In this document: positions 1,971 to 20,950 of the stretch, one piece after another | Numbering within the stretch: position 1 is the stretch's first letter | Layout: each line of letters begins with the position of its first letter | NCBI GenBank assembly: GCA_043718695.1 | Contig: JAYSVF010000080.1 | Coordinates: 1 to 24,000 of the forward strand | Length of the DNA stretch: 24,000 nt | Direction of reading: 5' to 3' | Source of the DNA: Acidimicrobiia bacterium | GTDB lineage: Bacteria > Actinomycetota > Acidimicrobiia > Acidimicrobiales > JANYDT01 | Position numbers and translations under genes: made by a program | Notes under the pieces: model-generated | Database searches by the model: none | Seen by the model: the letters and a program-made list of their open reading frames with translations, nothing else | What the model was told of the DNA's origin: nothing

Positions 1971-2407
1971 AATCCACCAACAAATTCACCTTCTACGAGC
2001 CCGATCTCGACGGTTCTCTCCCCCGCCACTTCCTCCGTTCTGCTCTTTTCATTTGCCTTCTCCCCGGACGTTCCCACGGCTACGAACTCCTAGAGCAGGT
2101 CAGACTTTTCGGCCTCTCCACCGCGGATCTCGCCGGCGTGTATCGAGCCATGAAGTCGATGGAACATGATGGTCTCGTCAATTCCGAATGGGAGAAGTCT
2201 GGGCTCGGACCACCGCGACGCATTTACGAGTTGACTCCATTAGGCCTGATCGCTGCTGACAAGCACCGTAACGCCCTCCGAACGGCTCGCGATCACCTTG
2301 ACTTGATGATCAGATCCGTTTCGCCTCTTCCCGTTGACCACAGGTTCCAACACGGACTACGTAGCGCTTCGGTTGGGCCACGGCCTTCGAGTCAAAAGAC
2401 CTCATGA
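1967..2407 (+). CDS. PadR-family transcriptional regulator
   Basis: From the internal ATG at 1967 (ATGA overlap with the previous stop). GYELLEQV...LAGVYRAMKSMEHDGLVNSEWEKSGLGPPRRIYELTPLG is the classic PadR wHTH signature. The longer 1847 start was rejected (Arg/Ser-rich, overlaps the upstream gene). Confidence 0.85.
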   Translation: MKSTNKFTFYEPDLDGSLPRHFLRSALFICLLPGRSHGYELLEQVRLFGLSTADLAGVYRAMKSMEHDGLVNSEWEKSGLGPPRRIYELTPLGLIAADKHRNALRTARDHLDLMIRSVSPLPVDHRFQHGLRSASVGPRPSSQKTS

Positions 2408-3183
2408 GAATCGCCATTGCTGGTAAAGGGGGCGCAGGCAAGACCACCTTCTCCGCTACCACTGCTCGCCTACTCGCTCGGCAGGGAATGAACGTCGTCG
2501 CAATCGATGCCGATACCAATCCCAACCTAGCCGCCGCGATGGGTTTCGACCTCGCCGCAGTCTCCAACGTAGCCATACTTCCCACCAACATCGTGTCACG
2601 TCGTCTCGACGGTTCCGCAGCGCTGCGCCTGCCACTCGATGAGGTTCTCGACGGCCATGCAGTTCGTGGGCCAGATGGAGTTCGTCTCGTTCGCATGGGA
2701 ATGCCCGACCACGCCCAAGAAGGTTGCCTTTGTTCGGCCCATGCCGCCGGATCAGCTCTACTCGCCGACCTTGGTTCGCAATCTGAAACCTGGACAATCA
2801 TGGACTTAGAAGCATCGCCCGAACACTTAAGTCGTGGCACTGCACGCCATGCCGACGCACTGATCCTTGTGGCCGAGCCGTATTTCCGATCCCTTGAAGC
2901 TGTGCGACTCCAGGCGCGCCTGGCGGCAGAACTCCCAAACGTAGTTGTTGGAGCGGTGGCCAATAAACTCCGATCGCCCGAAGATGCACAAGCCGTCCGC
3001 GAGTTTGTTGACAGTATTGGAATTCCCCTCTGGGGTGAGGTTCCCTGGTCCGATGACATTACCAACGCCGATCGCCTCCGAATGTCACTGATCGATGCCG
3101 CGCCGGCCAGCCCAGCAGTTACGGGCATGCGGAACACGTTACGTACACTTATGGCACTGAAAGCATCACGAGTATGTGTGTAG
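2404..3183 (+). CDS. CooC-type (MinD/ParA-fold) nickel-insertion accessory ATPase
   Basis: Deviant Walker A motif MRIAIAGKGGAGKTT. The EGCLCSAH motif corresponds to the CooC C-x-C metal site, and DLEASPEHLSRGT to CooC DMEAGIEHFGRGT. ATGA overlap with PadR. Confidence 0.85.
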   Translation: MRIAIAGKGGAGKTTFSATTARLLARQGMNVVAIDADTNPNLAAAMGFDLAAVSNVAILPTNIVSRRLDGSAALRLPLDEVLDGHAVRGPDGVRLVRMGMPDHAQEGCLCSAHAAGSALLADLGSQSETWTIMDLEASPEHLSRGTARHADALILVAEPYFRSLEAVRLQARLAAELPNVVVGAVANKLRSPEDAQAVREFVDSIGIPLWGEVPWSDDITNADRLRMSLIDAAPASPAVTGMRNTLRTLMALKASRVCV

Positions 3184-3473
3184 GAGTTCCCGCTAGAGTA
3201 ATCGGTCCGGTCGACATGACCACCCACGAGGCCATGGTCGAGTGCAATGGAGTCCGCCGCAGCGTCAACGTTTCCTTAGTCGTCGAAACCGATGGCACAG
3301 GACTCAACCTCGGAGACTGGGTTCTTTTGCACGTCGGTTTTGCCATGAGCATTCTCGACGAAGACGAGGCACGTCGCACCTTGGAGTTACTCACCCTCCT
3401 TGGCGGCGACAATGAAGACTTCGAAGCTTTCGCCGCATCGGCCGAATCTCTTAACGCCTCCGTAGAACCATGA
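3174..3473 (+). CDS. hypC: Hydrogenase maturation chaperone HypC/HupF
   Basis: N-terminal MCVGVP and GDWVLLHVGFAMSILDEDEA are HypC hallmarks. Overlaps the CooC gene by 10 nt. Confidence 0.9.
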   Translation: MCVGVPARVIGPVDMTTHEAMVECNGVRRSVNVSLVVETDGTGLNLGDWVLLHVGFAMSILDEDEARRTLELLTLLGGDNEDFEAFAASAESLNASVEP

Positions 3474-4165
3474 CCGTGATCGACCCCTGCGGTTCGTTGG
3501 CGGTCGTTGCGCGTCACCTTTCCAATCGCATCGCGCAGGGGTCCACCCTCTGGGCGGTTGCACCCGAATTGGACGACCATGCACACCACCTCGCCGTGGA
3601 GTTCGTTCACCCAGCTTCGGTGGGAGCGATGGCTGTACCGGCAGTGGCTGTCTGCGGTGAGGCAGACCGAATGCTCGAAAAGCTCCGAGCGCAAGTCCGC
3701 ACCGGCGACGTCATCGTCTCGATGGGATACACCGACACATTCATTGTCGAGCTGTCCAATCGTGCCGTGGCGTGGGGAGCCGATCACGTTCACCTTGGAT
3801 GGGGGCAGGACCCAATCGCCAGTCCTCTTGACCCTCGGTCATTCTGTGTTCAACTCGGCACCGACGGGTCTAGCGAACGGTACCTCACCCGTTCGTACCA
3901 TTTGCTATGGGAACTTACATGCATTTGTCTTCAGAATCGAAAGTTGACAAGTGCACCTCACGACGATGTTCTCGTCACTACCAGCTGTTCGGTGTGCGCC
4001 GATGAAGCGACCACAACGGAAGTGACGGAAGTACTGACGAACGATAGAGCGCGAGTTCGGACAGCCTGCGGTCCGGAAGTCATTGATATCAGCCTCCTCG
4101 ACAATGTTCGACAACATGATCTCGTACTGGTACATGCTGGAATCGCCCTTCGAAGGTTGTCGTGA
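3470..4165 (+). CDS. Fusion protein: degenerate SIS (GmhA-like) domain plus C-terminal HypC-like OB domain
   Basis: The N-terminal ~160 aa follows the GmhA/SIS layout (HHLAVEFVHP ~ QHFAAELVGRF; HLLWELTCICL ~ HLLILHCLCELI) but lacks the GNGGS loop. The C-terminal 57 aa, VCADEATTTEVTEVLTNDRARVRTACGPEVIDISLLDNVRQHDLVLVHAGIAL, resembles HypC (..A.V...G....V.L.L....D.VLVH.G.A.). ATGA overlap with hypC. Confidence 0.7.
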   Translation: MTVIDPCGSLAVVARHLSNRIAQGSTLWAVAPELDDHAHHLAVEFVHPASVGAMAVPAVAVCGEADRMLEKLRAQVRTGDVIVSMGYTDTFIVELSNRAVAWGADHVHLGWGQDPIASPLDPRSFCVQLGTDGSSERYLTRSYHLLWELTCICLQNRKLTSAPHDDVLVTTSCSVCADEATTTEVTEVLTNDRARVRTACGPEVIDISLLDNVRQHDLVLVHAGIALRRLS

Positions 4166-4166
4166 C

Positions 4167-4916
4167 ATGGCTACGAGCAACTCCGTGAACGGACCGAGCT
4201 TCTTATACCCTTTCCTAGACGCAATGCCATTAGATGAAGCGCAAACGCCACAACATTCCGCGGACAAATCGACAAAGCACCCGACTGAAACCCTTTTCAG
4301 CAATAGCGAGCTCGAGGAATTGGCTGCAGCCGCTCGCGTCAGCTGGACTACCGGCGAGGAGTTAGACAAGGAAACGGTTATCGCAAATGAACTACTGATT
4401 GACGAAGCAGCACGGTTGATCGTCGAGAGCACGCTTGGGTTTGGTCGGGTGTTCGTAATTGGCAATGGAGGAAGTGCCTGCGATGCCCAACGATTCGTGC
4501 GCTTGCTACAACCCTCAGTCGCGGTATCGTCGTTGATGGATTCGGTGGTCATCACCGCGCTCGCAAATGATGTCGGCGCCGACCGTATCTTCGATCGCCA
4601 AATCGAAACCTTTGCAAAGTCTCAGGATGTTGTCGTGGCATTCAGCACGAGCGGCACATCCACAAATGTTCTCAGCGCACTTGCACGAGCGAGGCGAAAG
4701 GGAGCATTTACCATCGTCTTTGCTGGCTACGGGGGTGCGGCACTTACCAACAATCCCGATGTAGATGTTTGCCTCGCCGTGGACTCATCGAGCGTTCACC
4801 GCATCCAAGAAGCCCAGGGTGCCCTTACGTTGACACTCGCCGATCGGGTTGGTATGCATCTAGAGGTACGGCGCGGCACTACAACGGACGAATCAGCTAG
4901 GACCGCTACGCCATGA
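4167..4916 (+). CDS. SIS-domain protein (phosphoheptose-isomerase/GmhA-like) with an N-terminal ~70-aa extension
   Basis: From the ATG 1 nt after the previous stop. VFVIGNGGSACDAQRF, ALANDVGADRIFDRQIE, VVVAFSTSGTSTNVLSAL and SVHRIQEAQ match SIS/GmhA motifs. Confidence 0.8.
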   Translation: MATSNSVNGPSFLYPFLDAMPLDEAQTPQHSADKSTKHPTETLFSNSELEELAAAARVSWTTGEELDKETVIANELLIDEAARLIVESTLGFGRVFVIGNGGSACDAQRFVRLLQPSVAVSSLMDSVVITALANDVGADRIFDRQIETFAKSQDVVVAFSTSGTSTNVLSALARARRKGAFTIVFAGYGGAALTNNPDVDVCLAVDSSSVHRIQEAQGALTLTLADRVGMHLEVRRGTTTDESARTATP

Positions 4917-6037
4917 AGTTCGTTGACGAATACCGCGATCCACAAACCGCCAAGCTTGCACTCAAACAAATTGAATCATTGGCAGGAGATCAACCGCTGA
5001 AATTTATGGAAGTCTGTGGCGGACACACGCACACGATTTACCGTCATGGGATCGAGCAGATTCTTCCGCCGAATATTGAGCTCGTCCACGGTCCGGGCTG
5101 CCCGGTGTGCGTGATCCCCATGGGTCGAGTTGATGATGCGATTGCCGTGGCGCAAACCCCTGGGGTGATCTTCACAACCTTCGGCGACATGCTCCGCGTA
5201 CCGGGATCAACCTCAACGCTATTAGAGGCGAAGGCCCGTGGGGCCGATGTCCGTATGGTCTACTCGCCCCTCGACGCACTTGAGTTGGCCCGACGAAACC
5301 CTGATAGCCAAGTCGTTTTCTTTGCTGTCGGCTTCGAGACCACAGCGCCCTCCACGGCAATCACTCTTCGCCAGGCCAAACGTGACGGCGTCAGCAATTT
5401 TTCGGTGTTCTGCAACCACGTCACCATCGTTCCCCCGTTGTTAGCCATCCTCGATAGTCCCGGCCTCGAACTCCACGGATTCCTTGGGCCCGGGCACGTG
5501 GCCACCGTCGTCGGCCTGCGTCCATTTCAATTCGTAAGCGAACGTTACAACAAGCCGATCGTGGTGGCAGGCTTCGAACCACTTGACATACTCCAAGGTG
5601 TGTCCATGCTCCTGCAGCAGCGGGACCAGGGCCGCTGCGAAGTGCAAAACCAATACGGTCGGGCCGTTCCACCTTCTGGCAACCCCCGAGCCCTTGAGGT
5701 TATGGCTGAGGTTTTTGAACTTCGTCCACATTTCGAATGGCGCGGGCTGGGTTTCATCCCGCAATCCGGACTCCGACTTAATCCAACGTACGCAGATTAT
5801 GACACCGAACAACGCTTCACGGTTCCTGGTGTGCGTATTGCCGACCCGAAAGCGTGCCAGTGCGGCGAAGTGTTAAAGGGAGCGATTCGGCCTTGGGAAT
5901 GCAAGGTGTTCGGAACAGCGTGCACCCCACAAACACCGATCGGTACGTGCATGGTTTCGTCAGAGGGTGCATGCGCCGCGTTCTACAACTACGGTCGACT
6001 CTCCCAGCGCCGCAACATTGCGGTCCGTTCCGCATGA
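4913..6037 (+). CDS. hypD: Hydrogenase maturation protein HypD
   Basis: Motifs MKFVDEYRD, CGGHTHTIYRHG, GPGCPVCV, VGFETT, and the C-terminal GTCMVSSEGACAA cysteine motif. Confidence 0.95.
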   Translation: MKFVDEYRDPQTAKLALKQIESLAGDQPLKFMEVCGGHTHTIYRHGIEQILPPNIELVHGPGCPVCVIPMGRVDDAIAVAQTPGVIFTTFGDMLRVPGSTSTLLEAKARGADVRMVYSPLDALELARRNPDSQVVFFAVGFETTAPSTAITLRQAKRDGVSNFSVFCNHVTIVPPLLAILDSPGLELHGFLGPGHVATVVGLRPFQFVSERYNKPIVVAGFEPLDILQGVSMLLQQRDQGRCEVQNQYGRAVPPSGNPRALEVMAEVFELRPHFEWRGLGFIPQSGLRLNPTYADYDTEQRFTVPGVRIADPKACQCGEVLKGAIRPWECKVFGTACTPQTPIGTCMVSSEGACAAFYNYGRLSQRRNIAVRSA

Positions 6038-7125
6038 GTGGCGACACAACCGTCGCAGCTAGCCACTCGCTGAACAACGGTCGGCGAGCGAAACCTCGGT
6101 TCACTGATCAGGTCATTACCATGGCCCACGGCGCGGGCGGTTTAGCCAGCGAGGCTCTTGTTGATTCGGTCTTTCGAACAGCATTCACCGACTCTGAACT
6201 GCTGCGTGCCGATGATGGTGCGGTTCTTGAACTTGATTCGTCGTTGTCTGGTTTGGTCGACCTTGTCATGACTACCGACTCCTTCGTTGTGCGACCCCGA
6301 CGATTTCCCGGCGGATCAATAGGTACACTTGCTATTTGCGGAACCGTGAACGATCTTTGCGTGATGGGCGCCAAACCACGATGGTTGTCGGTAGCCTTTG
6401 TGCTCGAAGAGGGCTTTGCCGTGGAAGAACTCAGAGCCATTGTTGCCGATATGGCTGAGATGGCCAACCGCAGTGGTGTCCGAGTTGTTGCGGGAGATAC
6501 CAAGGTGGTTGAACGCGGAGCAGCCGACGGTTGCTATGTGACAACCACAGGAATTGGCACTCGTGTCAAGCATCGAGCTTTGGGTGCAGAACAGGTGAAG
6601 GTTGGTGACTCTGTAATCGTTTCGGGAAGGCTGGGCGACCACGGCATGGCCGTCATGCTCGCCCGCGGCGATCTCGCACTGTCGGCCGACATCGAATCTG
6701 ACTGCGCACCTCTCAATGACCTGATCGAAGCTGTAGTTCTCGCGGCTCCCAATGTCCGCTGGATGCGTGACCCAACCCGTGGCGGCCTCGCCAGCGCGCT
6801 AAACGAACTGGTTCGAGCAAACAACCTATCGGTCAAACTGGAGGAAACTTCGCTTCCAGTCATGCCTGCCGTAGCTGGTGCGTGCGAGTTGTTAGGCATT
6901 GACCCGCTCTACGTGGCCAACGAGGGGAAGGTCGTGCTCGTGGTCCCACCCAACGAAGCGGACGCCGCGCTCGGGGCCCTCCGTTCCCATCCCCTTGGAT
7001 TGCATGCAGCAGTTATTGGGACCATCAACGCTGAACCCTCGCGGATCGTCATGGTCCGAACGGCGTTTGGCGGAGAGCGTATTGTTGACCTTCTCGTCGG
7101 TGACCCGCTCCCAAGAATCTGCTGA
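6034..7125 (+). CDS. hypE: Hydrogenase maturation protein HypE
   Basis: Start taken at the ATG overlapping the hypD stop (ATGA at 6034-6037). MAHGAGG, an AIR-synthase-like core, and the C-terminal PRIC motif. Confidence 0.93.
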   Translation: MSGDTTVAASHSLNNGRRAKPRFTDQVITMAHGAGGLASEALVDSVFRTAFTDSELLRADDGAVLELDSSLSGLVDLVMTTDSFVVRPRRFPGGSIGTLAICGTVNDLCVMGAKPRWLSVAFVLEEGFAVEELRAIVADMAEMANRSGVRVVAGDTKVVERGAADGCYVTTTGIGTRVKHRALGAEQVKVGDSVIVSGRLGDHGMAVMLARGDLALSADIESDCAPLNDLIEAVVLAAPNVRWMRDPTRGGLASALNELVRANNLSVKLEETSLPVMPAVAGACELLGIDPLYVANEGKVVLVVPPNEADAALGALRSHPLGLHAAVIGTINAEPSRIVMVRTAFGGERIVDLLVGDPLPRIC

Positions 7126-7446: not shown

Positions 7447-8301
7447 TCAAGCCCGACGCACAACCACATCGGCGACGCGATCACCGAGAAGGTTCAGCGA
7501 TAAAACCGTGAAGGCAATACACGCACCGGGAAAAACTGGAAGCCACCAGGCCACACGCAAATAGCGTTGTGCGTCGCCAGCAAGTTGCCCCCAACTGACC
7601 GTGTTCGGATCACCCAAACCGAGGAAGCCGATGCCCGCCTCGATCAACAACGCTTGGGCCACAACGAGGCCAAGGTAAGCGAACGTAGTGGGCACAACGT
7701 TTGGCACCACCTCACGCCACAGCACCCGGCGTCGGGTCGCTCCAGCCGCACGTGCAGCGACCACGAAATCACGTTCGACCAACGACTGGGTCTCAGCTCT
7801 AACAATGCGCGCCAAGGTCGGCCAGCTGGTGAGTCCAAGGAGCAGGGCCAGTCGTCCAAGACCCGCCCCGAAGATCGAACTGACGACGAGTGCCAAGAAG
7901 AACCGCGGCACGATTTGGACGATCTCCGTTACGCGCATCAAAAGATCATCTACCCAGCGCTTCGAGGACCCCGCCACGAGGCCCACGCTCGTTCCGATCA
8001 GCAGAACGAGCGCCGCCACGGTCGTCAGCACGAAAACGGAACTTCGGGTGCCGTGCACGACTTGGGACCACAGGTCACGTCCAAGCGCATCGCTCCCCAT
8101 GAGAAACCTCGCGCTCGGGGGATCCAGTGGTGGAGCCACTATCGCGAACGGTTTGTTTGGGGCCAGGATCGGTGCCGAAAGGCCGATGCACGCCACCACA
8201 AAACAACCCGTAAACCCAAGGGCTCCCGTTGGTGATCGCACGAGGCGAGCCAAAATGCTTTGCTTGATCACGTTCTCCGCACCTTTTTGGGCTTTGCGCA
8301 A
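7447..8301 (-). CDS. ABC transporter permease, peptide/nickel (DppC/OppC/NikC) family
   Basis: MGSDALGRDLWSQVVHG and ARAAGATRRRVLWREVVPNV (EAA-loop region), with multiple TM segments. The annotated start is TTG; an in-frame GTG 10 codons downstream is an alternative. Confidence 0.85.
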   Translation of the reverse strand: MRKAQKGAENVIKQSILARLVRSPTGALGFTGCFVVACIGLSAPILAPNKPFAIVAPPLDPPSARFLMGSDALGRDLWSQVVHGTRSSVFVLTTVAALVLLIGTSVGLVAGSSKRWVDDLLMRVTEIVQIVPRFFLALVVSSIFGAGLGRLALLLGLTSWPTLARIVRAETQSLVERDFVVAARAAGATRRRVLWREVVPNVVPTTFAYLGLVVAQALLIEAGIGFLGLGDPNTVSWGQLAGDAQRYLRVAWWLPVFPGACIAFTVLSLNLLGDRVADVVVRRA

Positions 8302-8308
8302 TCTTGTT

Positions 8309-9292
8309 TCATCGAGCCAACCGAGTCTGGCCGATGCGCGGATCTAATCGAGAGCTAACGAGGTCGATCACGAGATTGGCCACAACAACAGTCAGCGATG
8401 TCATCAAGAAGACTCCGAGGACGACAGGAATGTCGCGATTCTGCATTGCGCTGAGCAGAAGCCGACCAACACCGGGCCATCCAAACATGATTTCAACGAT
8501 TACTGTGCCGGATAGCATTTGTCCGAGCCGCCCTCCAATTACGGCCAGAACGGGAAGAAGCGGACGTTTCAATGCGTGGCGAAGAAGTACCGAACGCTCA
8601 GGCAAACCCTTTGAGCGCGCCATGAGGATATGCGCGCTTTCTAATTCGTCGATGAGACCAGACCGCAAAAGGCGCGTCACTGAACCAACTTCTTGGGCGG
8701 CCAAAATCATTACGGGCAGAACAAGGTGATGTGCGACGTCGACAAATGCTGCGAACCCGGACTTTACCTCCCGAGCGTTAGTCATGCCTTGGACGGGAAA
8801 CCACCCAAAGCGGAGCGCCAACCACAAAATGGCAATCTGCCCGATCCAAAACGTCGGTGTAGCGACCACAAGCACACTGAGGGTATTTACGACAACGTCA
8901 CCGATTCGATTGCGGCGGCTCGCCGAATACGCCGCAGCCACAACTCCGATTATGGTCGAAAGCACCAGGGCGGTGCCGGTGAGCAACAGCGTCTCGGGAA
9001 TCCGCTCAGCAATCAATGAGAGCACCGGCCGACCCTGAAGATAGGAAGTGCCCAGATCGCCTTTGATCAAACGCCCAAGATAAGAAAAGAACTGAGTCAA
9101 AATCGGTTCGTTCAGGCCAAACCGAGCCCTCGTCTCGGCGTAATAGGTCGCATCACCACCATCTCCCGCCAAGGCAAGCGCCGGGTCTCCAGGCGCGAGA
9201 TGGATCAGCACAAAGGAGAGTGTCACCACAGCCGCAGCGGTCGGGATCGCAAACCCCAACCGCCGTGCTGCGTATCGCAAGCCGCGACTCAC
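8309..9292 (-). CDS. ABC transporter permease, peptide/nickel (DppB/OppB/NikB) family
   Basis: N-terminal LRYAARRLGFAIPTAAAVVTLSFVLIHLAPGDP, MARSKGLPERSVLLRHALK, and C-terminal VVANLVIDLV...LDPR are all typical of the family. GTG start. Confidence 0.85.
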   Translation of the reverse strand: MSRGLRYAARRLGFAIPTAAAVVTLSFVLIHLAPGDPALALAGDGGDATYYAETRARFGLNEPILTQFFSYLGRLIKGDLGTSYLQGRPVLSLIAERIPETLLLTGTALVLSTIIGVVAAAYSASRRNRIGDVVVNTLSVLVVATPTFWIGQIAILWLALRFGWFPVQGMTNAREVKSGFAAFVDVAHHLVLPVMILAAQEVGSVTRLLRSGLIDELESAHILMARSKGLPERSVLLRHALKRPLLPVLAVIGGRLGQMLSGTVIVEIMFGWPGVGRLLLSAMQNRDIPVVLGVFLMTSLTVVVANLVIDLVSSRLDPRIGQTRLAR

Positions 9293-9324
9293 CAGTCGAA
9301 CTTTGCCGGTCTCATTTCATCAGT

Positions 9325-11082
9325 CTATTTTTTGCAGCTCGCCGCTTCGGCGAAGTGGCCCGATTCACTAAATCCCGTGCACGACGAACGAAATACTCGT
9401 GTACCCGTGGTCTCTACCAGCCAGATGTAGGGCAGGTCCTCGACCACAATCTCTTGGATCTTGCGATAAATCGAGCTACGGAACGAAACCGAACTGTTGG
9501 TTGCCGCGTCCTCGAATAGCTTTGTAACGGCTGCGTTGCGATAAGCCGACGAATTTGAGAACGCAACAGGACCGATTTGCGCCGAGTCATACATACGCCG
9601 AACACCAATTTCTGGATCGGTTCCGTTGCAGTAGCTAATCACATTTGTGTCGAAATCACGACGGGTAAACACTCGATCAGCGAAGGGCGCATTGTCTGCA
9701 GTTTCGAGTTGCACATCGATTCCGATTTCTGCAAGTTGCGCCTTGATCAGCTGACCATAGAGGGCAAAAGTTGGAAAGCTCAGGAACCGGAATCGAAGCG
9801 GTGTGCCGTCTCGCACCCCAGAAACGCTCTGTGCTGTCCGCGTGCCCGAACCTGCTTGCTTCCACCCAGCTTCATCGAGAAGGCGGGCGGCGGCCACCTT
9901 GTCGAAACCAGGAATCTTCAGGTCTTTGGCATAGGCGAAGGGAATCCCACTAGCAATCGGCCCAGTGGCAACTTTCCCCTGACCAAACAAAATTCGGTCG
10001 AGGAATTGCTTGCGGTCAAGACCTTGAAGAATCCCTTGACGGGTTCGCTGATCGGCGAAGATTGGCTTCTCTAAATTGAAACTCATCGACATAATGCAGT
10101 TCGAACCGCCAGGGTTTGTGAGCGTCTCGAGTGTCGATAATGACTTGTTTGCCTTCACGCGAGACAGATCTGCCCCGTTCACGCCATAGAGGAAATCGAC
10201 CTCCCCAGCCTCAAGGGCGATAAGTTGATTACCGGCATCGGGAATGACTCGCAGCACCACGCCATCGAGGTAAGGAAGACCTGCCTTGAAGTAGTTCTTG
10301 TTCGCCTTGAGACGTAGCTCGGCACCGGGCTTGTACGAATCAAACGCAAAGGGCCCGGTGCCGACGGGCTTGAGGTTGTAGGGATTTCGTGTCGCGTCTG
10401 TACCTGCGTAGAGGTGCGCGGGAAGGATTGGCGCTTCGGTCACATTCAGCTGTTGAAGAAACGCCGAGTATGGCTTGTAGAATCGAAACGTCACCGTTTG
10501 GGCGTCTGGAGTTTCGATACTTTTGACGGCGTCAAGCAACGAGGCCCGGGAACGAGCGTGGAACTTCGGCAGTGGGTCTTCAAATGTGTACTTAACATCT
10601 GCAGAGGAAAAGGGTTTGCCGTCGTGCCACGTGATGCCCTTGCGGAGTTTGAAGGTGTAGTCGCCACTGGATACTGTCCAACTCTCGGCCAACTCGGGAA
10701 CCAACTTCCCGTTCTCATCAATCTCAACGAGTCCGTTGTACATAAGTTCCGACGCCGAGTGAACTGCTCCCGCAGTGGTGATCGCCGGATTCAGCTGGCC
10801 CGGATCTTGAGTGATAGCTGCGACCAGCGTTCCGCCTCGATCCGGTGACAACACTGGAGTCGGAGCAGCGGTTGTACTAGTGACAGCCGTTGTCGGAGGG
10901 GCGGAGGCCGATACTTTTGTGGTATTCGTTGCTTTTGCAACGGGTTTCTTGCCCGCTGCTTTTTTCGTAGCAGCGGAACCTGGCGAATGTGCGATAACTA
11001 CAGTGAGCAGCACCCCTAACGCCAACAGCTCCGTTCTCCGCAGAAGTGACCGATGAGTCGTCATATCAAGGTTTGAGCGCAT
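9325..11082 (-). CDS. Extracellular solute-binding protein, family 5 (DppA/OppA/NikA-like), with signal peptide and Lys- then Thr/Pro-rich linker
   Basis: Signal-like N-terminus (RSLLRRTELLALGVLLTVVIAHSPGSAA). The linker is ATKKAAGKKPVAKATNTTKVSASAPPTTAVTSTTAAPTP. The family-5 core includes DPGQLNPA, LVEIDENGKLVPELAESW and ITWHDGKPFSSADV. Confidence 0.85.
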   Translation of the reverse strand: MRSNLDMTTHRSLLRRTELLALGVLLTVVIAHSPGSAATKKAAGKKPVAKATNTTKVSASAPPTTAVTSTTAAPTPVLSPDRGGTLVAAITQDPGQLNPAITTAGAVHSASELMYNGLVEIDENGKLVPELAESWTVSSGDYTFKLRKGITWHDGKPFSSADVKYTFEDPLPKFHARSRASLLDAVKSIETPDAQTVTFRFYKPYSAFLQQLNVTEAPILPAHLYAGTDATRNPYNLKPVGTGPFAFDSYKPGAELRLKANKNYFKAGLPYLDGVVLRVIPDAGNQLIALEAGEVDFLYGVNGADLSRVKANKSLSTLETLTNPGGSNCIMSMSFNLEKPIFADQRTRQGILQGLDRKQFLDRILFGQGKVATGPIASGIPFAYAKDLKIPGFDKVAAARLLDEAGWKQAGSGTRTAQSVSGVRDGTPLRFRFLSFPTFALYGQLIKAQLAEIGIDVQLETADNAPFADRVFTRRDFDTNVISYCNGTDPEIGVRRMYDSAQIGPVAFSNSSAYRNAAVTKLFEDAATNSSVSFRSSIYRKIQEIVVEDLPYIWLVETTGTRVFRSSCTGFSESGHFAEAASCKK

Positions 11083-15573: not shown

Positions 15574-17766
15574 CTACACCTCAACGAGGAGCTTGACCCT
15601 GACCGCGATACCAGTCATGTGGGCTTGGCTTGAGAGCGGCTCGAAGCTGCCGGGGCCGGTTGGAAGCAGCGCGTTGGGATTTGAGCCGGGGTTCGCCGCA
15701 GCGACGCGAAGCCGTGGACTAGCGCGGTGGCCCCAACCATGCACCATCGATACAACGCCTTCCATAAGATCATCATCGATCTCGAGAACCGATTCGATTT
15801 CACCGTGCGCACTGGCAACGGTCACCAGCGATCCATCCACCAAACCTTGACGATTGGCATCCTTCGTGCACATACAAAGTGGGTTCATAGTCCGGCCATG
15901 GCGTTTCATGCGCTCCACGTTGGCAAACCAAGAGTTATGCATCCAAGCATCACGCTTATGGATCAGCAACAGTTCACCCTCGCCACGTCGAGCAGCACCG
16001 GCCATCCCTTCGTCGAACAGCTCGTGACAGCGTTCCAAAGCTCCAGCGAAGGTAGGCGGACAACAATCGATCAGACCATCGGCGGTGTGCACCTGATCTT
16101 CGAAAAACGAACCTGGCAACGGCGGAGCTAGCTCCCGAGGCGCATGATCGGCTTGAAGATCCTCAAGTGACAGGCCGCTCCCCCGCTCCAGCATGTGCCG
16201 CCACTTCGACCACGGATCGGGTTGTTCTCCCTCAACCAGGCCATCAAACAAATTGGCCTTCCCCAACTTTTGCAAGAGTTGATGAGCAATCCACCATTCT
16301 GGACGTCGCTCGCCGCCAGGTTCCACTACCGCCGGCGTGTACTGAGCGAAGGGTCGAGCGCTGGTGCCGATGTTGACAATGTTGAGATCGTCACGCTCGT
16401 ACATGTCGGTCGCCGGGAGCATCACGTGGGCAAACTCGCTCGTTGCGCTTGGATAGATATCGATAACCACAAGCAGTTCGAGCTGCTCGAAGGCTTTACG
16501 CAGCCGATCCTCACCGGCAATGGAGAGCAGCGGATTGCCCGCAACCACAATCATCGCCCGAATCGGATCGGCACTGTCGAGAATGGACTGCGACATCATC
16601 GTGCCCGGCAACGACCCTCGACGGAGAAAACCAAACTCTGTATCGCCATAACCCTGCTCGGGAACCCCAGCACCGGCGCGAGCATTGGGATAGAAGCCAT
16701 CGCTTTTGAGATTCCCGCCAACTACATCGAGCCTGCCGGTCACAAACGAAAGCATGTGCACAAGCCAATACGCGAGCGTGCCCTGACGACCCATATTGAT
16801 ACCGGTCGACGCATGGACCGAGGCACGCGGGGTCACCACCCAAGCCGAAGCGAGTTCGCGAACCGTTTCGGCGGAAATTCCGGTAACTTCCGCAGTGCGG
16901 TCGGGTGGATACTTCGAAAGGTAGGCGCGCAGATCATCAATGCGACGACCATGGGAGGAAATAACTCTTGCGTCAAACCCACCCAACCGATCGATCTCGT
17001 GCAGCAGAGATGCCAAGAACCACACATCAGTATCAGGACGAATCAGCAACGTGTCACCAACTCCCTGCTCCGGAGTTTCGATGCGACGAGGATTTACAAA
17101 GACCAGTCGAGCGCCACGTCCAGCGGCCCGTTTCATTTCGCCGAGCACGTTGGGAATGGAATAAAACGAGGCCTGTGAAGCCCGCGGGTTCTCACCAATG
17201 ATGAGGCAAAGATCGGTGTTGGCAAGATCAGGAATGGGGTGAACGGTGCTCGAACCGAACACGGCCTCGCTGGCCACGAACTTGTTCGCACAATCCTGCG
17301 TTCCGGAAGAGAATGCCCGGCGGATTCCAAGTGTGCGAAGCAGCGTTCCTGTATGGAGTTGGCCAAGGGCGTTAAACGCAGTGGGGTTTCCTACATAAGC
17401 ACCAACAGCGTTGATTCCATACTTGGCAATGATGCCCTTAAGCTTCGTGGCGGTATGCGTAAGCGCCTCATCCCATCCCGCTTCGCTCCAGGTTCCATCT
17501 GGGGATCGCAGCATGGGGGTGCTCAGCCGGTCGGGGTCATGGTGCAGATCCACGGCGGCGAGACCCTTATGACAGGCAAATCCTTTGGTCACCGGATGCT
17601 CACGGTCGGGCACTAACTTCACGAGGCGCCCCTCTTCGACCTTGGCGATCAATCCGCAGCTCGGTTCACAGATACGACAAAACGTTCGGATCTCCTGGGA
17701 GTCTTGGGAGGGAGTCACTGTTGACTGTGCTCGTGACTGTGCTCGTGATTGTGCTGTTGATTCCAT
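15574..17766 (-). CDS. Molybdopterin-dependent oxidoreductase (DMSO-reductase/formate-dehydrogenase superfamily) with an N-terminal 4Fe-4S motif; no Tat signal
   Basis: CRICEPSCG...ACHKG is a C-x2-C-x3-C...C motif, followed by MopB-type domains over 730 aa. The substrate cannot be assigned from sequence. Confidence 0.85.
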   Translation of the reverse strand: MESTAQSRAQSRAQSTVTPSQDSQEIRTFCRICEPSCGLIAKVEEGRLVKLVPDREHPVTKGFACHKGLAAVDLHHDPDRLSTPMLRSPDGTWSEAGWDEALTHTATKLKGIIAKYGINAVGAYVGNPTAFNALGQLHTGTLLRTLGIRRAFSSGTQDCANKFVASEAVFGSSTVHPIPDLANTDLCLIIGENPRASQASFYSIPNVLGEMKRAAGRGARLVFVNPRRIETPEQGVGDTLLIRPDTDVWFLASLLHEIDRLGGFDARVISSHGRRIDDLRAYLSKYPPDRTAEVTGISAETVRELASAWVVTPRASVHASTGINMGRQGTLAYWLVHMLSFVTGRLDVVGGNLKSDGFYPNARAGAGVPEQGYGDTEFGFLRRGSLPGTMMSQSILDSADPIRAMIVVAGNPLLSIAGEDRLRKAFEQLELLVVIDIYPSATSEFAHVMLPATDMYERDDLNIVNIGTSARPFAQYTPAVVEPGGERRPEWWIAHQLLQKLGKANLFDGLVEGEQPDPWSKWRHMLERGSGLSLEDLQADHAPRELAPPLPGSFFEDQVHTADGLIDCCPPTFAGALERCHELFDEGMAGAARRGEGELLLIHKRDAWMHNSWFANVERMKRHGRTMNPLCMCTKDANRQGLVDGSLVTVASAHGEIESVLEIDDDLMEGVVSMVHGWGHRASPRLRVAAANPGSNPNALLPTGPGSFEPLSSQAHMTGIAVRVKLLVEV
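17722..17757 (-). repeat. Three tandem 12-bp units (TGACTGTGCTCG x2, TGATTGTGCTGT) encoding (AQSR/T)3 at the oxidoreductase N-terminus
   Basis: Read directly from the sequence. The repeat is in frame (4 codons per unit). Confidence 0.9.
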
Positions 17767-17981: not shown

Positions 17982-19088
17982 CTAGCTTCGAGCGACCTGC
18001 CATGTCCCATTGGATCGCAACAGTTCCTGCAAATCTCCCGGCCCTTTGCGTGCCGAGGCCTGCAACAACTGCCCGGACATATCTGAACCGTAGTCACTTC
18101 GCTCGACTGATCGGAAAATACCGACGGGAGTTGGCGAATGCGTATCGTGCGATAGGCGGGCTAGCGCAAACGCTAAGGATGGATCTTCTCGATGGGCATC
18201 GTGCACGAGCAAGGAACTCTCGCCCACCTCTGCCACGGAGACTATTCGTAACTGCCCATCGGTTCCCATTACAACGCCACGCTCGCCATCGACGCCAAAT
18301 CGAATGGGTTGGCCATGTTCCAAATCCATCAACATGGCTGATCGATTGTCTTTGCCGGTAATCCCTTCGAACGCGCCATCGTTAAACACGTTGCAGTTTT
18401 GGAGAATTTCCACGAACGATGCACCCCGATGATTGTGGGCGGCACGAAACACCTTCATCATGTGTTTGCGATCCAAATCATGAGTACGCGCCACAAAACT
18501 TGCCTCGGCACCTAAAGCCACCGACAATGGATTGAAGGGATAGTCAAGCGATCCGAACGGAGTTGATTTGGTCACCTTGCCCTGTTCCGAAGTAGGCGAA
18601 TACTGGCCCTTTGTAAGCCCATAGATCTGGTTGTTGAACATCAGGATCGTGAGATTCACATTGCGGCGCAGGGCATGGATGAGATGGTTTCCGCCAATGG
18701 ATAGCCCGTCGCCATCACCGGTAATCACCCACACATCAAGATCAGGGCGGGCCAGGGCAATACCCGTCGCTACAGCTGGAGCCCTCCCGTGGATCGAATG
18801 GATACCGTAGGTGTTCATATAATATGGAAAGCGGCTGGAGCAACCGATACCCGAAACAAACACCACGTTCTCGGGCGCCACGCCCAACTCGGGCATCAAC
18901 ATTTGTACGGCCGTCAAGATGCCGTAGTCACCACACCCGGGACACCAGCGGACTTCTTGATCGCTCGTCCAATCCTTCTTCGACGTCAATGCAACCGGAT
19001 CAAACCCCGTCGGGCCGACTACGTCACCCGAACGGACGGTGCCTTTTTCCGACCGGCAAGCCGGATCGGTAACACCTGGATCACTCAT
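17982..19088 (-). CDS. korB: 2-oxoacid (2-oxoglutarate):ferredoxin oxidoreductase, beta (TPP-binding) subunit
   Basis: WCPGCGDYGIL, GIGCSSRFPYY and GDGDGLSIGGNH (TPP motif). ATGA overlap with the alpha subunit. Confidence 0.9.
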   Translation of the reverse strand: MSDPGVTDPACRSEKGTVRSGDVVGPTGFDPVALTSKKDWTSDQEVRWCPGCGDYGILTAVQMLMPELGVAPENVVFVSGIGCSSRFPYYMNTYGIHSIHGRAPAVATGIALARPDLDVWVITGDGDGLSIGGNHLIHALRRNVNLTILMFNNQIYGLTKGQYSPTSEQGKVTKSTPFGSLDYPFNPLSVALGAEASFVARTHDLDRKHMMKVFRAAHNHRGASFVEILQNCNVFNDGAFEGITGKDNRSAMLMDLEHGQPIRFGVDGERGVVMGTDGQLRIVSVAEVGESSLLVHDAHREDPSLAFALARLSHDTHSPTPVGIFRSVERSDYGSDMSGQLLQASARKGPGDLQELLRSNGTWQVARS

Positions 19089-20950
19089 GACAGTTCCCTT
19101 TCGATGACGGCTTGTAACTCAGCGGCGGTAAACGGAATTCCCTGAACTTTCGAAATAGCTTTTGCCGGCACCAGAAATTCTGATCTGACCACCCGACAGA
19201 GCTGACCAAGATTCATTTCAGGAACAATGATCTTTGGGTACCGTTGAAGCACCTCGCCAAGATTCGCGGGAAACGGATTGAGGTGCATGAGATGGACCCA
19301 TGCCACCTTGCGACCCGTTTGACGTACCTCGGCCACCGCGGCCTTAATCGCACCCCACGTTGAGCCCCAGCCGAGAACAAGCAATTCTGCGTCGGCATCA
19401 CCGGTTACCTCAACGAGCGGAATATCTTTGGCGATACCGGCGATTTTGTCTGCGCGCAGATGAACCATCTTTTCGTGGTTCTCGGGCGTGTAACTAATGT
19501 TGCCCGAACCATCTTCCTTTTCGATGCCGCCAACACGATGCATAAGTGCTGGCGTACCCGGAATAGCCCATGGTCTCGCCAGAGTTTCAGGATCACGCAG
19601 ATACGGCCAGAACTCCATCTCTCCATCTGCACGCATATGATTTAACTGCGTGGCAAACGGAACGGAGATATCGGGGAGTTGCGATACGTCGGGCAACTTC
19701 CATGGATGGGCGCCATTGGCTAGATAGCCATCGGACAACAAGATGACCGGTGTGCGGTACTTGAGGGCAATACGAGCCGCTTCGATCGCCGCTTCAAAGC
19801 AATGCGGTGGGTTGTAAGCCGCGACTACTGGTAGTGGAGCTTCTCCGTGACGGCCATAGAGGGCCATGAGAAGGTCGGCCGCTTCAGTCTTGGTTGGTAA
19901 CCCCGTTGAGGGCCCGCCGCGCTGCACGTCGATGATGAGCAGCGGCAATTCAAGACTCACCGCGAGACTCATCGTTTCGCCTTTGAGGGCAACACCAGGT
20001 CCACTTGTGGTGGTCACGCCAAGATGACCGGCAAAGGCCGCGCCGAGCGCACTGCCGATAGCGGCGATTTCATCCTCGGCCTGAAACGTTCTTACGCCAA
20101 AATTCTTGTGTTTCGAAAGCTCATGAAGAATGTCAGAAGCCGGGGTGATCGGATAGGAACCAAGAAACACCGGAAGTCGAGCGCATTGCCCAGCAGCTAC
20201 CAAACCCCAAGCCAAAGCGGTGTTCCCAGTGATATTGGTGTACTCCCCCGCTGGGAGCTTTGCTGGATCCACTTGAAACGGATGATCAAAAAGTTCCGTG
20301 GTTTCACCAAAGTTATAACCCGCGCTGAAGGCTGCTCGGTTCGACAAACGCACGAGCTCGTTCTTGGCGAACTTCTCATCAATCCATTCCATGGTCGAAT
20401 CAATCGGCCTTGAGTAACACCAGGAGATCAGCCCGAGAGCAAAGAAGTTCTTCGAACGATCGGCATCGCGCTGTTTGACGCCCAGGGGAAGAACAGCCGC
20501 AATGGTAAGCGACGTCATGGGAACCTCCACCACCCGGTACAACGCAAGGCTGTCATCAAGCAGAGGATTTTCGGTGAACCCCGCTTTCGTGAGGTTCCGC
20601 TCATCGAAGGTATCGGTGTTCACAATCACCACTCCGCCGGGAAGCAGGTGGTGTAGATCGGCTTTGAGCGCGGCAGGATTCATGGCGATCAGAACCGTTG
20701 GCGCGTCGCCGGGTGTGGAGATTTCGTGATCAGAAATCCGCACCTGAAAAGACGAAACCCCAGCCAAAGTTCCGGCTGGGGCACGAATTTCTGCTGGGTA
20801 CTCAGGAAATGTGGACAGGTCGTTTCCAAACAGTGCACTTACCGAGGTGAATCGATCCCCCGTGAGTTGCATCCCATCGCCAGAATCGCCGGCGAAGCGA
20901 ATGACGAGATCGGTGAGATGCTCTGCGGGTCTTGCTGCTGTATCGGTCAT
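19085..20950 (-). CDS. korA: 2-oxoacid (2-oxoglutarate):ferredoxin oxidoreductase, alpha subunit
   Basis: FAGDSGDGMQLTG, YPITPASDILH and TSGPGVALK motifs. 621 aa, the two-subunit actinobacterial KOR-type layout. GGAGGG SD upstream. Confidence 0.9.
   Translation of the reverse strand: MTDTAARPAEHLTDLVIRFAGDSGDGMQLTGDRFTSVSALFGNDLSTFPEYPAEIRAPAGTLAGVSSFQVRISDHEISTPGDAPTVLIAMNPAALKADLHHLLPGGVVIVNTDTFDERNLTKAGFTENPLLDDSLALYRVVEVPMTSLTIAAVLPLGVKQRDADRSKNFFALGLISWCYSRPIDSTMEWIDEKFAKNELVRLSNRAAFSAGYNFGETTELFDHPFQVDPAKLPAGEYTNITGNTALAWGLVAAGQCARLPVFLGSYPITPASDILHELSKHKNFGVRTFQAEDEIAAIGSALGAAFAGHLGVTTTSGPGVALKGETMSLAVSLELPLLIIDVQRGGPSTGLPTKTEAADLLMALYGRHGEAPLPVVAAYNPPHCFEAAIEAARIALKYRTPVILLSDGYLANGAHPWKLPDVSQLPDISVPFATQLNHMRADGEMEFWPYLRDPETLARPWAIPGTPALMHRVGGIEKEDGSGNISYTPENHEKMVHLRADKIAGIAKDIPLVEVTGDADAELLVLGWGSTWGAIKAAVAEVRQTGRKVAWVHLMHLNPFPANLGEVLQRYPKIIVPEMNLGQLCRVVRSEFLVPAKAISKVQGIPFTAAELQAVIERELS

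Follow-up and report, generated by a model that had tools for sequence, protein, structure and literature searches.

To our knowledge, HypA and HypB are regarded as near-universal agents of nickel insertion in [NiFe]-hydrogenase assembly, and the known exception, the Thermococcales, keeps HypA. The ATPase-type HypB of Thermococcus is not known to have a metal-binding Cys motif and acts through HypA. CooC1 of Carboxydothermus hydrogenoformans and the CooC of Rhodospirillum rubrum are ATP-dependent Ni-insertion factors of another enzyme, Ni,Fe-CO dehydrogenase (CODH). Here we describe a CooC-type ATPase gene, hereafter CooCL1, at positions 2404–3183 of a 24,000-nucleotide stretch of DNA (the window), the first 24 kb of a 53.9-kb contig from a metagenome-assembled Acidimicrobiia genome. 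CooCL1 lies among the maturation (hyp) genes of a [NiFe]-hydrogenase, and it is fairly probable that it forms the core of a hydrogenase-dedicated branch of CooC proteins that replaces the HypA/HypB nickel module, usually together with three paralogues. The support for this reading is comparative genomics rather than experiment.

That such clusters contain a CooC-type gene has been reported before, in a single line of annotation. Ray et al. (2022; PMC9561532) describe a ‘group 1m’ [NiFe]-hydrogenase cluster of Actinobacteriota metagenome-assembled genomes (MAGs) and list in it “a Ni insertion ATPase (CooC-type)”, together with small transmembrane proteins. The text of that paper contains none of the terms hypA, maturation and nickel, and the supplements searched contain none of CooC, HypA, HypB and selenocysteine, so the absence of HypA and HypB, the four paralogues and the selenocysteine (Sec) forms reported below are not described there. 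The literature searched yielded no other use of the term group 1m, and no account of a distribution complementary to HypA/HypB, of a four-paralogue system, of a link to a Nik-like importer or of a Sec-x-Sec form.

CooCL1 is a CooC-type ATPase

CooCL1 (+ strand, ATG start, 259 aa) is a SIMIBI ATPase with the deviant Walker A sequence GKGGAGKTT at residues 7–15 and the metal motif G107-C108-L109-C110, both as read in the initial annotation. Its best PDB sequence match is CooC1 of C. hydrogenoformans (3kje), with E 8e-20 over residues 1–204. With CooC1 (3kje, 3kjg, 3kjh and 3kji) and the R. rubrum CooC it has in common the SIMIBI fold, the deviant Walker A and the signature lysine. CooC1 and CooCL1 are both about 255 aa long, the C108-L-C110 of CooCL1 aligns with C112-Y-C114 of CooC1, and the two share the switch II sequence EHLxRGTA (DLEASPEHLSRGTARHAD aligned to DMGAGIEHLTRGTAKAVD), which in CooCL1 is part of a complete switch II/Walker B pattern, D-x-x-A-x-x-EHL-x-RGTA. 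They differ in the residues of the motif region, which continues as CSAHA in CooCL1 and as CPEN or CREN in CODH-linked CooC, and in their setting: CooCL1 stands in a hyp operon, its carriers, where searched, have no CODH, and it is usually accompanied by three paralogues, Cys-less and Sec-containing ones included. Generic models match the protein (Pfam CbiA, 2.5e-17; Fer4_NifH, full length, 1.9e-9), all four paralogues stay below the cut-off of every NCBIfam model, and the atlas clusters for CooCL1 carry only the generic name “ATP-binding protein”.

An AlphaFold2 model of CooCL1 built with 50 homologues has a pLDDT of 93.3 and a pTM of 0.91, and its only dip in confidence is in the loop preceding CxC. 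Foldseek returns CooC1 (3kje) as the top PDB match of this model (E 7.7e-16, TM 0.75), ahead of MinD, FlhG, Soj and NifH. The ATPase-type (Mrp/MinD) HypB of Thermococcus kodakarensis (3vx3, 5aun–5auq) offers a precedent for a SIMIBI ATPase in place of the GTPase HypB. In contrast to CooC1, however, 3vx3 matches CooCL1 in the P-loop only (residues 4–39, 36 residues, E 1e-5) and shows no full-length similarity; further differences are that HypA is mostly absent from CooCL1 genomes and that the CxC/Sec site is invariant. On sequence and fold alike, CooCL1 is thus CooC-like, as had been proposed, rather than a MinD-type HypB. Nor does it resemble canonical HypB, which works with HypA: the inferred job would be the same and the operon neighbourhood is the same (hypC, hypD, hypE), but CooCL1 is a MinD/CooC-type ATPase, HypB is a G3E GTPase, and HypA is usually gone too. 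CooCL1 gives no TIGR00073 or cobW-type match and has no G3E GTPase domain with a CH metal motif; the TIGR00073 model does detect HypB elsewhere in the class and phylum, at 206–272 bits.

Homologues match CooCL1 at up to 91% identity, with E values down to 1e-147. In a 50-sequence alignment, G7, K8, G9, G10, G12, K13, T14, D35, D37, C108, C110, D134, E140 and R144 are invariant and H141, G145 and T146 are at least 90% conserved; across the orthologous group the metal motif reads EGC[LM]C[SG]AHA. Synteny is kept in nine related genomes. The start codon overlaps the stop of an upstream PadR-family gene in an ATGA at 2404–2407, and the start of hypC (3174) overlaps the final 10 nt of CooCL1, so that the coupling to both neighbours noted earlier holds. 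Some orthologues have a TGA before a C-terminal “CV” that could be read as Sec; this reading was ruled out, the TGA being a true stop that overlaps the hypC start (TGATGTGT, read in two frames).

Distribution against HypA, HypB and CODH

The source genome (398 contigs, 4.45 Mb, 56.7% GC, 79.7% complete), whose close relatives are Acidimicrobiia MAGs, contains no HypA (PF01155) and no HypB (TIGR00073) above cut-off, the best score being 25 bits. The initial annotation had found neither gene in the window, which agrees with the absence of HypA and HypB family matches among the window open reading frames (ORFs) scanned, and it had called for a whole-genome check, in which canonical hypA/hypB and CODH are missing from the source genome and from most relatives, the single-contig genome G365 included. 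CODH/Prismane (PF03063) is found neither in the source genome nor in 15 relatives, and no genomic link to a Ni,Fe-CODH or ACS client was seen, the neighbours of CooCL1 being hyp genes and a [NiFe]-hydrogenase.

Five relatives were retrieved by searching for the locus. Four of them lack both hypA and hypB, including G001, which has contigs longer than 1 Mb; the fifth, G003, carries hypAB beside a third large subunit, of the hypAB-linked type described below. We then sampled the class with an even set of 391 high-quality Acidimicrobiia genomes, at least 90% complete, with the following counts.

CooCL1 orthologue present (n = 10): hypA absent in 8, a 30-bit partial match in 1, present in 1; hypB absent in 9, present in 1
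Related (1h-like) hydrogenase, no CooC-like gene at E ≤ 1e-20 (n = 13): hypA in 13; hypB in 10

All ten CooCL1 genomes are at least 92% complete, and eight of them, at 92–99%, lack both genes. In the 13 genomes free of CooC-like genes, hypAB mostly adjoin the large subunit. Among the genomes sampled, CooCL1 and hypB are mutually exclusive in distribution, with G385 as the sole CooCL1 genome of the class sample that has hypAB; these are on a separate contig, and the genome carries three large-subunit genes.

The pattern extends to other classes of the phylum. A CooCL1-like gene is present in 28 of 396 high-quality genomes sampled there, a count that includes the unpublished G517 and G450, which enter no other result given here, and among the 18 published carriers with at least 39% identity HypB is absent from 17 and HypA from 13. 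One of the other-class carriers, G708 (97% complete), has on a single contig a hypAB-type (1h-like) large subunit, NifU, a peptidase, hypA, hypC, a Nik-like importer and the genes orf1527 (a winged-helix-like protein), PadR and CooCL1; no hypB was found in this genome, and here HypB would quite literally have been replaced and HypA retained. The suggestion that CooCL1 takes the place of HypB is right as to the absence of HypB and incomplete otherwise, since HypA is also gone from most genomes.

Four CooC-like paralogues

The initial annotation described a single CooC-type gene in the operon. CooCL1 is confirmed, but whole-genome searches reveal four orthologous groups of CooC-like genes per locus, conserved in at least five families of the order. 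The other three members lie on two further contigs of the source genome, C199 and C200.

C200:5101–5865, − strand: CooCL3, directly upstream of hypF, with the motif GCTCGGH
C200:6777 to contig end (6777–7346), + strand: CooCL4, Walker A intact, no Cys at the motif
C199:6260–7051, − strand: CooCL2, coupled to CooCL4, with the motif G-TGA-P-TGA-C

CooC1 is the best PDB match of CooCL2 (5.7e-15) and CooCL3 (3.4e-19), as it is of CooCL1, and the best full-length PDB match of CooCL4. In 22 of 27 long metagenome contigs CooCL4 directly precedes CooCL2 on the same strand. The arrangement of the two genes suggests a heterodimer of a Cys-less and a Sec-containing subunit.

A tree of CooC-like proteins (149 rows, unrooted) recovers each paralogue as a clade: CooCL1 with its distant forms at 96% support, CooCL3 at 100%, CooCL2 at 98% and CooCL4 at 98%; CooCL2 and CooCL4 are sisters (91%). 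CooCL1–4 stand opposite 89 rows that hold the acetogen CODH-linked CooCs, whose motif is GCxCPE[NH], a weak split with 81% support in the approximate likelihood-ratio test (SH-aLRT). The references are acetogen CooCs only, with no R. rubrum, C. hydrogenoformans or AcsF sequence among the rows, and the CODH-linked side is thinly referenced because a homologue search from an acetogen CooC gave only close Peptostreptococcales relatives. The sole match in a plasmid collection, the CooC of an Acetoanaerobium acs locus (36.7% identity, in an unannotated record), was taken as a CODH-linked reference. Two representatives, P0252 and P0244, come from contigs of only about 1.6 kb and bring no gene context to their clades. 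In this tree CooCL1, a member of the CooC (COG3640-type) superfamily, appears to sit in a hydrogenase-linked radiation apart from the sampled CODH-linked CooCs. Of the placement expected at the outset, membership of the CooC superfamily stands, but CooCL1 appears to fall outside the sampled CODH-linked clade (81% SH-aLRT, unrooted).

Two genomes, G108 and G306, have one CooC-like gene only, of the CooCL1 lineage, and neither hypA nor hypB. Because they carry only this type, the CooCL1 lineage appears to be the core member of the system.

Probable selenocysteine at the metal motif

In seven genomes from six families, CooCL2 has two in-frame TGA codons exactly at the CxC position (G-U-P-U-C), with the following orthologues.

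L027:5570–6319: CooCL2 orthologue
L032, L033, L034 and L038: CooCL2 orthologues

A Cys form of CooCL2 in G006 reads C-P-C-C at the same position. The distant CooCL1 forms vary likewise, with U-L-C in G108 and G306, where the first Cys is replaced by Sec, and C-M-C in G006. A hairpin, [C/G][C/U]GAGC-AGUU-GCUC[G/A][G/C], starts 13–14 nt past the second UGA of CooCL2 and shows compensatory changes. The exact double-TGA pattern occurs in 97 metagenome contigs, and 60 of 80 such contigs fetched combine an in-frame Walker A ahead of it with 100 or more open codons after it. The source genome has tRNA-Sec and SelB. CooCL2 is a probable double-selenocysteine protein, judging from these features. The alternation of Cys and Sec at the motif (U-L-C; U-P-U versus C-P-C) points to a selected metal or redox ligand site, in keeping with a metal-handling function of CooCL1 and the rest of the family.

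The CooCL2 gene would be split by gene callers. Many database ‘proteins’ of the family are truncated, either stopping close to residue 105 or beginning close to residue 109 (for example, P0249 and P0384–P0386), which we attribute to gene callers splitting Sec genes at UGA.

Organisation of the locus

The window begins inside the small-subunit gene of the hydrogenase, and the hyp operon runs away from it.

3–491, − strand: [NiFe]-hydrogenase small subunit, N-terminal part; cut off by the contig start, transcribed divergently from the hyp operon
678–929, 926–1210 and 1213–1476, + strand: three small single-pass membrane proteins at the head of the operon; order kept in all relatives
1527–1970, + strand: winged-helix-like protein (orf1527) with a Cys/His-rich tail, HGECDADCWCH; no Pfam family
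1967–2407, + strand: PadR-family regulator (Pfam PadR, 6e-13); ATGA overlap with each neighbour
2404–3183, + strand: CooCL1
3174–3473, + strand: HypC, N-terminus MCVGVP (Pfam HupF_HypC, 1.5e-21; TIGR00074)
3470–4165 and about 4083–4916, + strand: coupled HypC-like/SIS (GmhA-like) pair
4913–6037, + strand: HypD (PF01924, 9e-156; TIGR00075)
6034–7125, + strand: HypE (TIGR02124, 1.6e-124); start approximate, the ORF being open from 5854 and the match beginning near 6115
7447–11082, − strand: Nik/Opp-type ATP-binding cassette (ABC) importer without ATPase genes; substrate-binding protein 9325–11082, permeases 8309–9292 and 7447–8301

The truncated ORF at 3–491 has 88–92% identity to the gene adjoining the large subunit in relatives. 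The source genome’s own large subunit is represented by its C-terminal part at C199:1–747, followed on C199 by two HycI-like peptidase genes and by NifU-like, TPR and BirA-like (BPL_C) genes, and hypF is on C200. On the longer contigs of relatives the order is BirA-like, TPR, peptidase, NifU, peptidase-like, large subunit and small subunit, and then, divergently, the three membrane proteins, the winged-helix gene, PadR, CooCL1, hypC, a gene x, SIS, hypD and hypE. As these pieces are joined there, we take the window contig, C199 and C200 to be one locus.

The composition agrees with that of the published cluster: adjacent small and large subunits, two HycI-like genes (HybD-like peptidase), NifU, TPR, BirA-like/BPL_C and the CooC-type ATPase, with the transmembrane trio at 678–1476 matching the small membrane proteins listed there; DUF1059 was not seen among the genes of the source genome’s locus. 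Matched by gene content, CooCL1 and its locus very probably belong to the same gene family and cluster as group 1m of PMC9561532.

The large subunit differs between the two kinds of locus. With CooCLs its C terminus reads DPCMPCTTH.DTG.G.ITRE.NSC[GSA]CTLE and with hypAB ...DPCLPCGVHMYLGKG..., so that C-terminal type splits in the same way as CooCL versus hypAB. Once Ni is in place, the C-terminal tail of the large subunit is normally removed by cleavage. A C-x-C is conserved in this tail in all CooCL-linked large subunits (for example, L009:4936–6840, − strand), and the hypAB-linked type lacks it.

The winged-helix protein orf1527 is always directly upstream of PadR–CooCL1, in other classes of the phylum as well. 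This protein, whose tail reads HGECDADCWCH...C, may be a metal sensor or a Ni-binding partner.

The importer at 7447–11082 (Pfam SBP_bac_5 and BPD_transp_1) is convergent with hypE. The best NCBIfam match of its binding protein is nickel_nikA (182 bits) and that of the first permease is the nickel model Opp2B (271 bits), both below curated cut-offs; the second permease matches the oligopeptide model Opp4C (199 bits) slightly better than Opp2C (192 bits), again below the cut-offs. Several families, another class and metagenome contigs keep the module in synteny with hypE or CooCL1, and this adjacent Nik-like importer probably supplies the nickel.

Proposed mechanism and alternatives

By analogy with CooC1, we infer that CooCL1 binds Ni, dimerises in response to ATP and hands the metal to the hydrogenase, and that the paralogues may be partners in this. 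Nickel provided by the Nik-like importer would enter the CooCL1 pathway, and ATP binding would bring about a CooCL1 dimer as in CooC1, in which two C108-x-C110 loops meet at the interface and form a tetrathiolate Ni(II) site. Hydrolysis of ATP would then release Ni into the apo large subunit, a step that we would place after installation of Fe(CN)2CO by HypC, HypD, HypE and HypF. The proposal that a CooC-like protein delivers Ni to a hydrogenase thus gains computational support from distribution, operon and fold, with the delivery itself argued from that analogy. Complex predictions weigh neither way: the large subunit (from L009) with CooCL1 scored 0.00 and two copies of CooCL1 with HypC scored 0.01, both without signal and below the mark.

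A more specific version of the scheme is tentative and, to our minds, somewhat doubtful. It holds that many uncultured Actinomycetota mature their high-affinity, oxygen-insensitive [NiFe]-hydrogenases independently of HypA/HypB, by means of a CooCL1 homodimer together with a heterodimer of CooCL4 and Sec-x-Sec-Cys CooCL2, in which selenolate-bound Ni would be passed to the C-x-C of the large-subunit tail (..NSCGCTLE) before proteolytic processing.

Several observations weigh against replacement of HypA/HypB by CooCL1. A classical large subunit occurs with HypA but without HypB in 12 genomes of the class (G333, G023, G264, G156, G111, G294, G366, G075, G288, G195, G056 and G371). Their large subunits are full length (Pfam E about 1e-230) and their HypA matches are weak, mostly adjoining the large subunit. 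Nine of the 12 also have no CooC-like gene, so HypB can be missing without a CooC substitute and its loss alone is no proof of substitution; in two of them, G156 and G023, no ORF with a Walker A lies within about 6–9 kb of the large subunit. The Ni specificity of CooCL1 is extrapolated, because CooCL1–4 stand apart from the sampled CODH-linked CooCs, and the CxC loops of a SIMIBI dimer might instead hold an Fe-S cluster between them. Related genomes are not independent samples, the source genome is only 79.7% complete, and the sequencing runs found with the locus are DNA only, from sediment metagenomes, with no RNA runs among them.

The Fe-S chemistry just mentioned leads to a different function, in which the CooC-like ATPases are Fe-S carriers or insertases akin to Mrp, NBP35 and NifH that bind a [4Fe-4S] cluster through their CxC loops, with the small subunit or HypD rather than nickel insertion as their business. 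The full-length Fer4_NifH match, the NifH and Mrp structures among the fold matches and the NifU-like gene of the locus all point that way, and the computations do not separate Ni from Fe-S at a tetrathiolate site. We nevertheless consider it quite improbable: by far the best match is CooC1, whose CxC binds Ni/Zn; the cluster ligands of NifH are no CxC; the Cys-less CooCL4 would be unable to ligate a cluster; the Nik-like importer is syntenic; and the distribution is complementary to hypA/hypB specifically, with hypC, hypD, hypE and hypF retained. A role in nickel homeostasis is also unlikely, if a little less remote. CooCL1 would then belong to a module with the winged-helix protein, PadR and the Nik-like importer that stores or routes Ni or signals Ni status, and insertion would fall to CooCL2–4, to HypA where present or to the peptidase-like proteins. 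Such a module would explain why the orf1527–PadR–CooCL1 trio moves as a unit, often abutting a Nik-like transporter, and is kept even apart from hypCDE in G708, G698 and metagenome contigs, and it would suit the retention of HypA in G708 and G698. It sits poorly with G108 and G306, which have a CooCL1-type gene alone and no HypA or HypB, and with the overlap of CooCL1 and hypC in the family of the source genome.

The simplest objection is that hypA/hypB or a CODH client lies in the unassembled 20% of the genome and that the CooC-like gene is incidental to the hydrogenase. Completeness of 79.7% across 398 contigs leaves room for it, but eight relatives that are 92–99% complete (the single-contig G365 included) and G001 show the same absence, no CODH occurs in 16 genomes, and synteny with the hyp genes is strictly conserved; we regard this explanation as very improbable.

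Implications

The comparison describes a lineage of atmospheric-H2-type hydrogenases with CooC-type ATPases, no HypB and usually no HypA, which occurs in about 7% of the sampled high-quality Actinomycetota genomes and in many soil and sediment metagenomes. If CooCL1 does replace HypA/HypB, the maturation systems of CODH and hydrogenase become linked, the needs of heterologous expression of these hydrogenases would be accounted for, and the Sec-containing paralogues would tie selenium to nickel-enzyme assembly under oxic conditions. Two annotations call for correction: “CO dehydrogenase maturation factor” in genomes that lack CODH, and Sec forms cut into two fragments.

Downstream genes

Beyond the importer, the window carries a molybdopterin oxidoreductase and a two-subunit 2-oxoacid:ferredoxin oxidoreductase.

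15574–17766 and 17982–20950, both − strand: molybdopterin oxidoreductase and two-subunit 2-oxoacid:ferredoxin oxidoreductase

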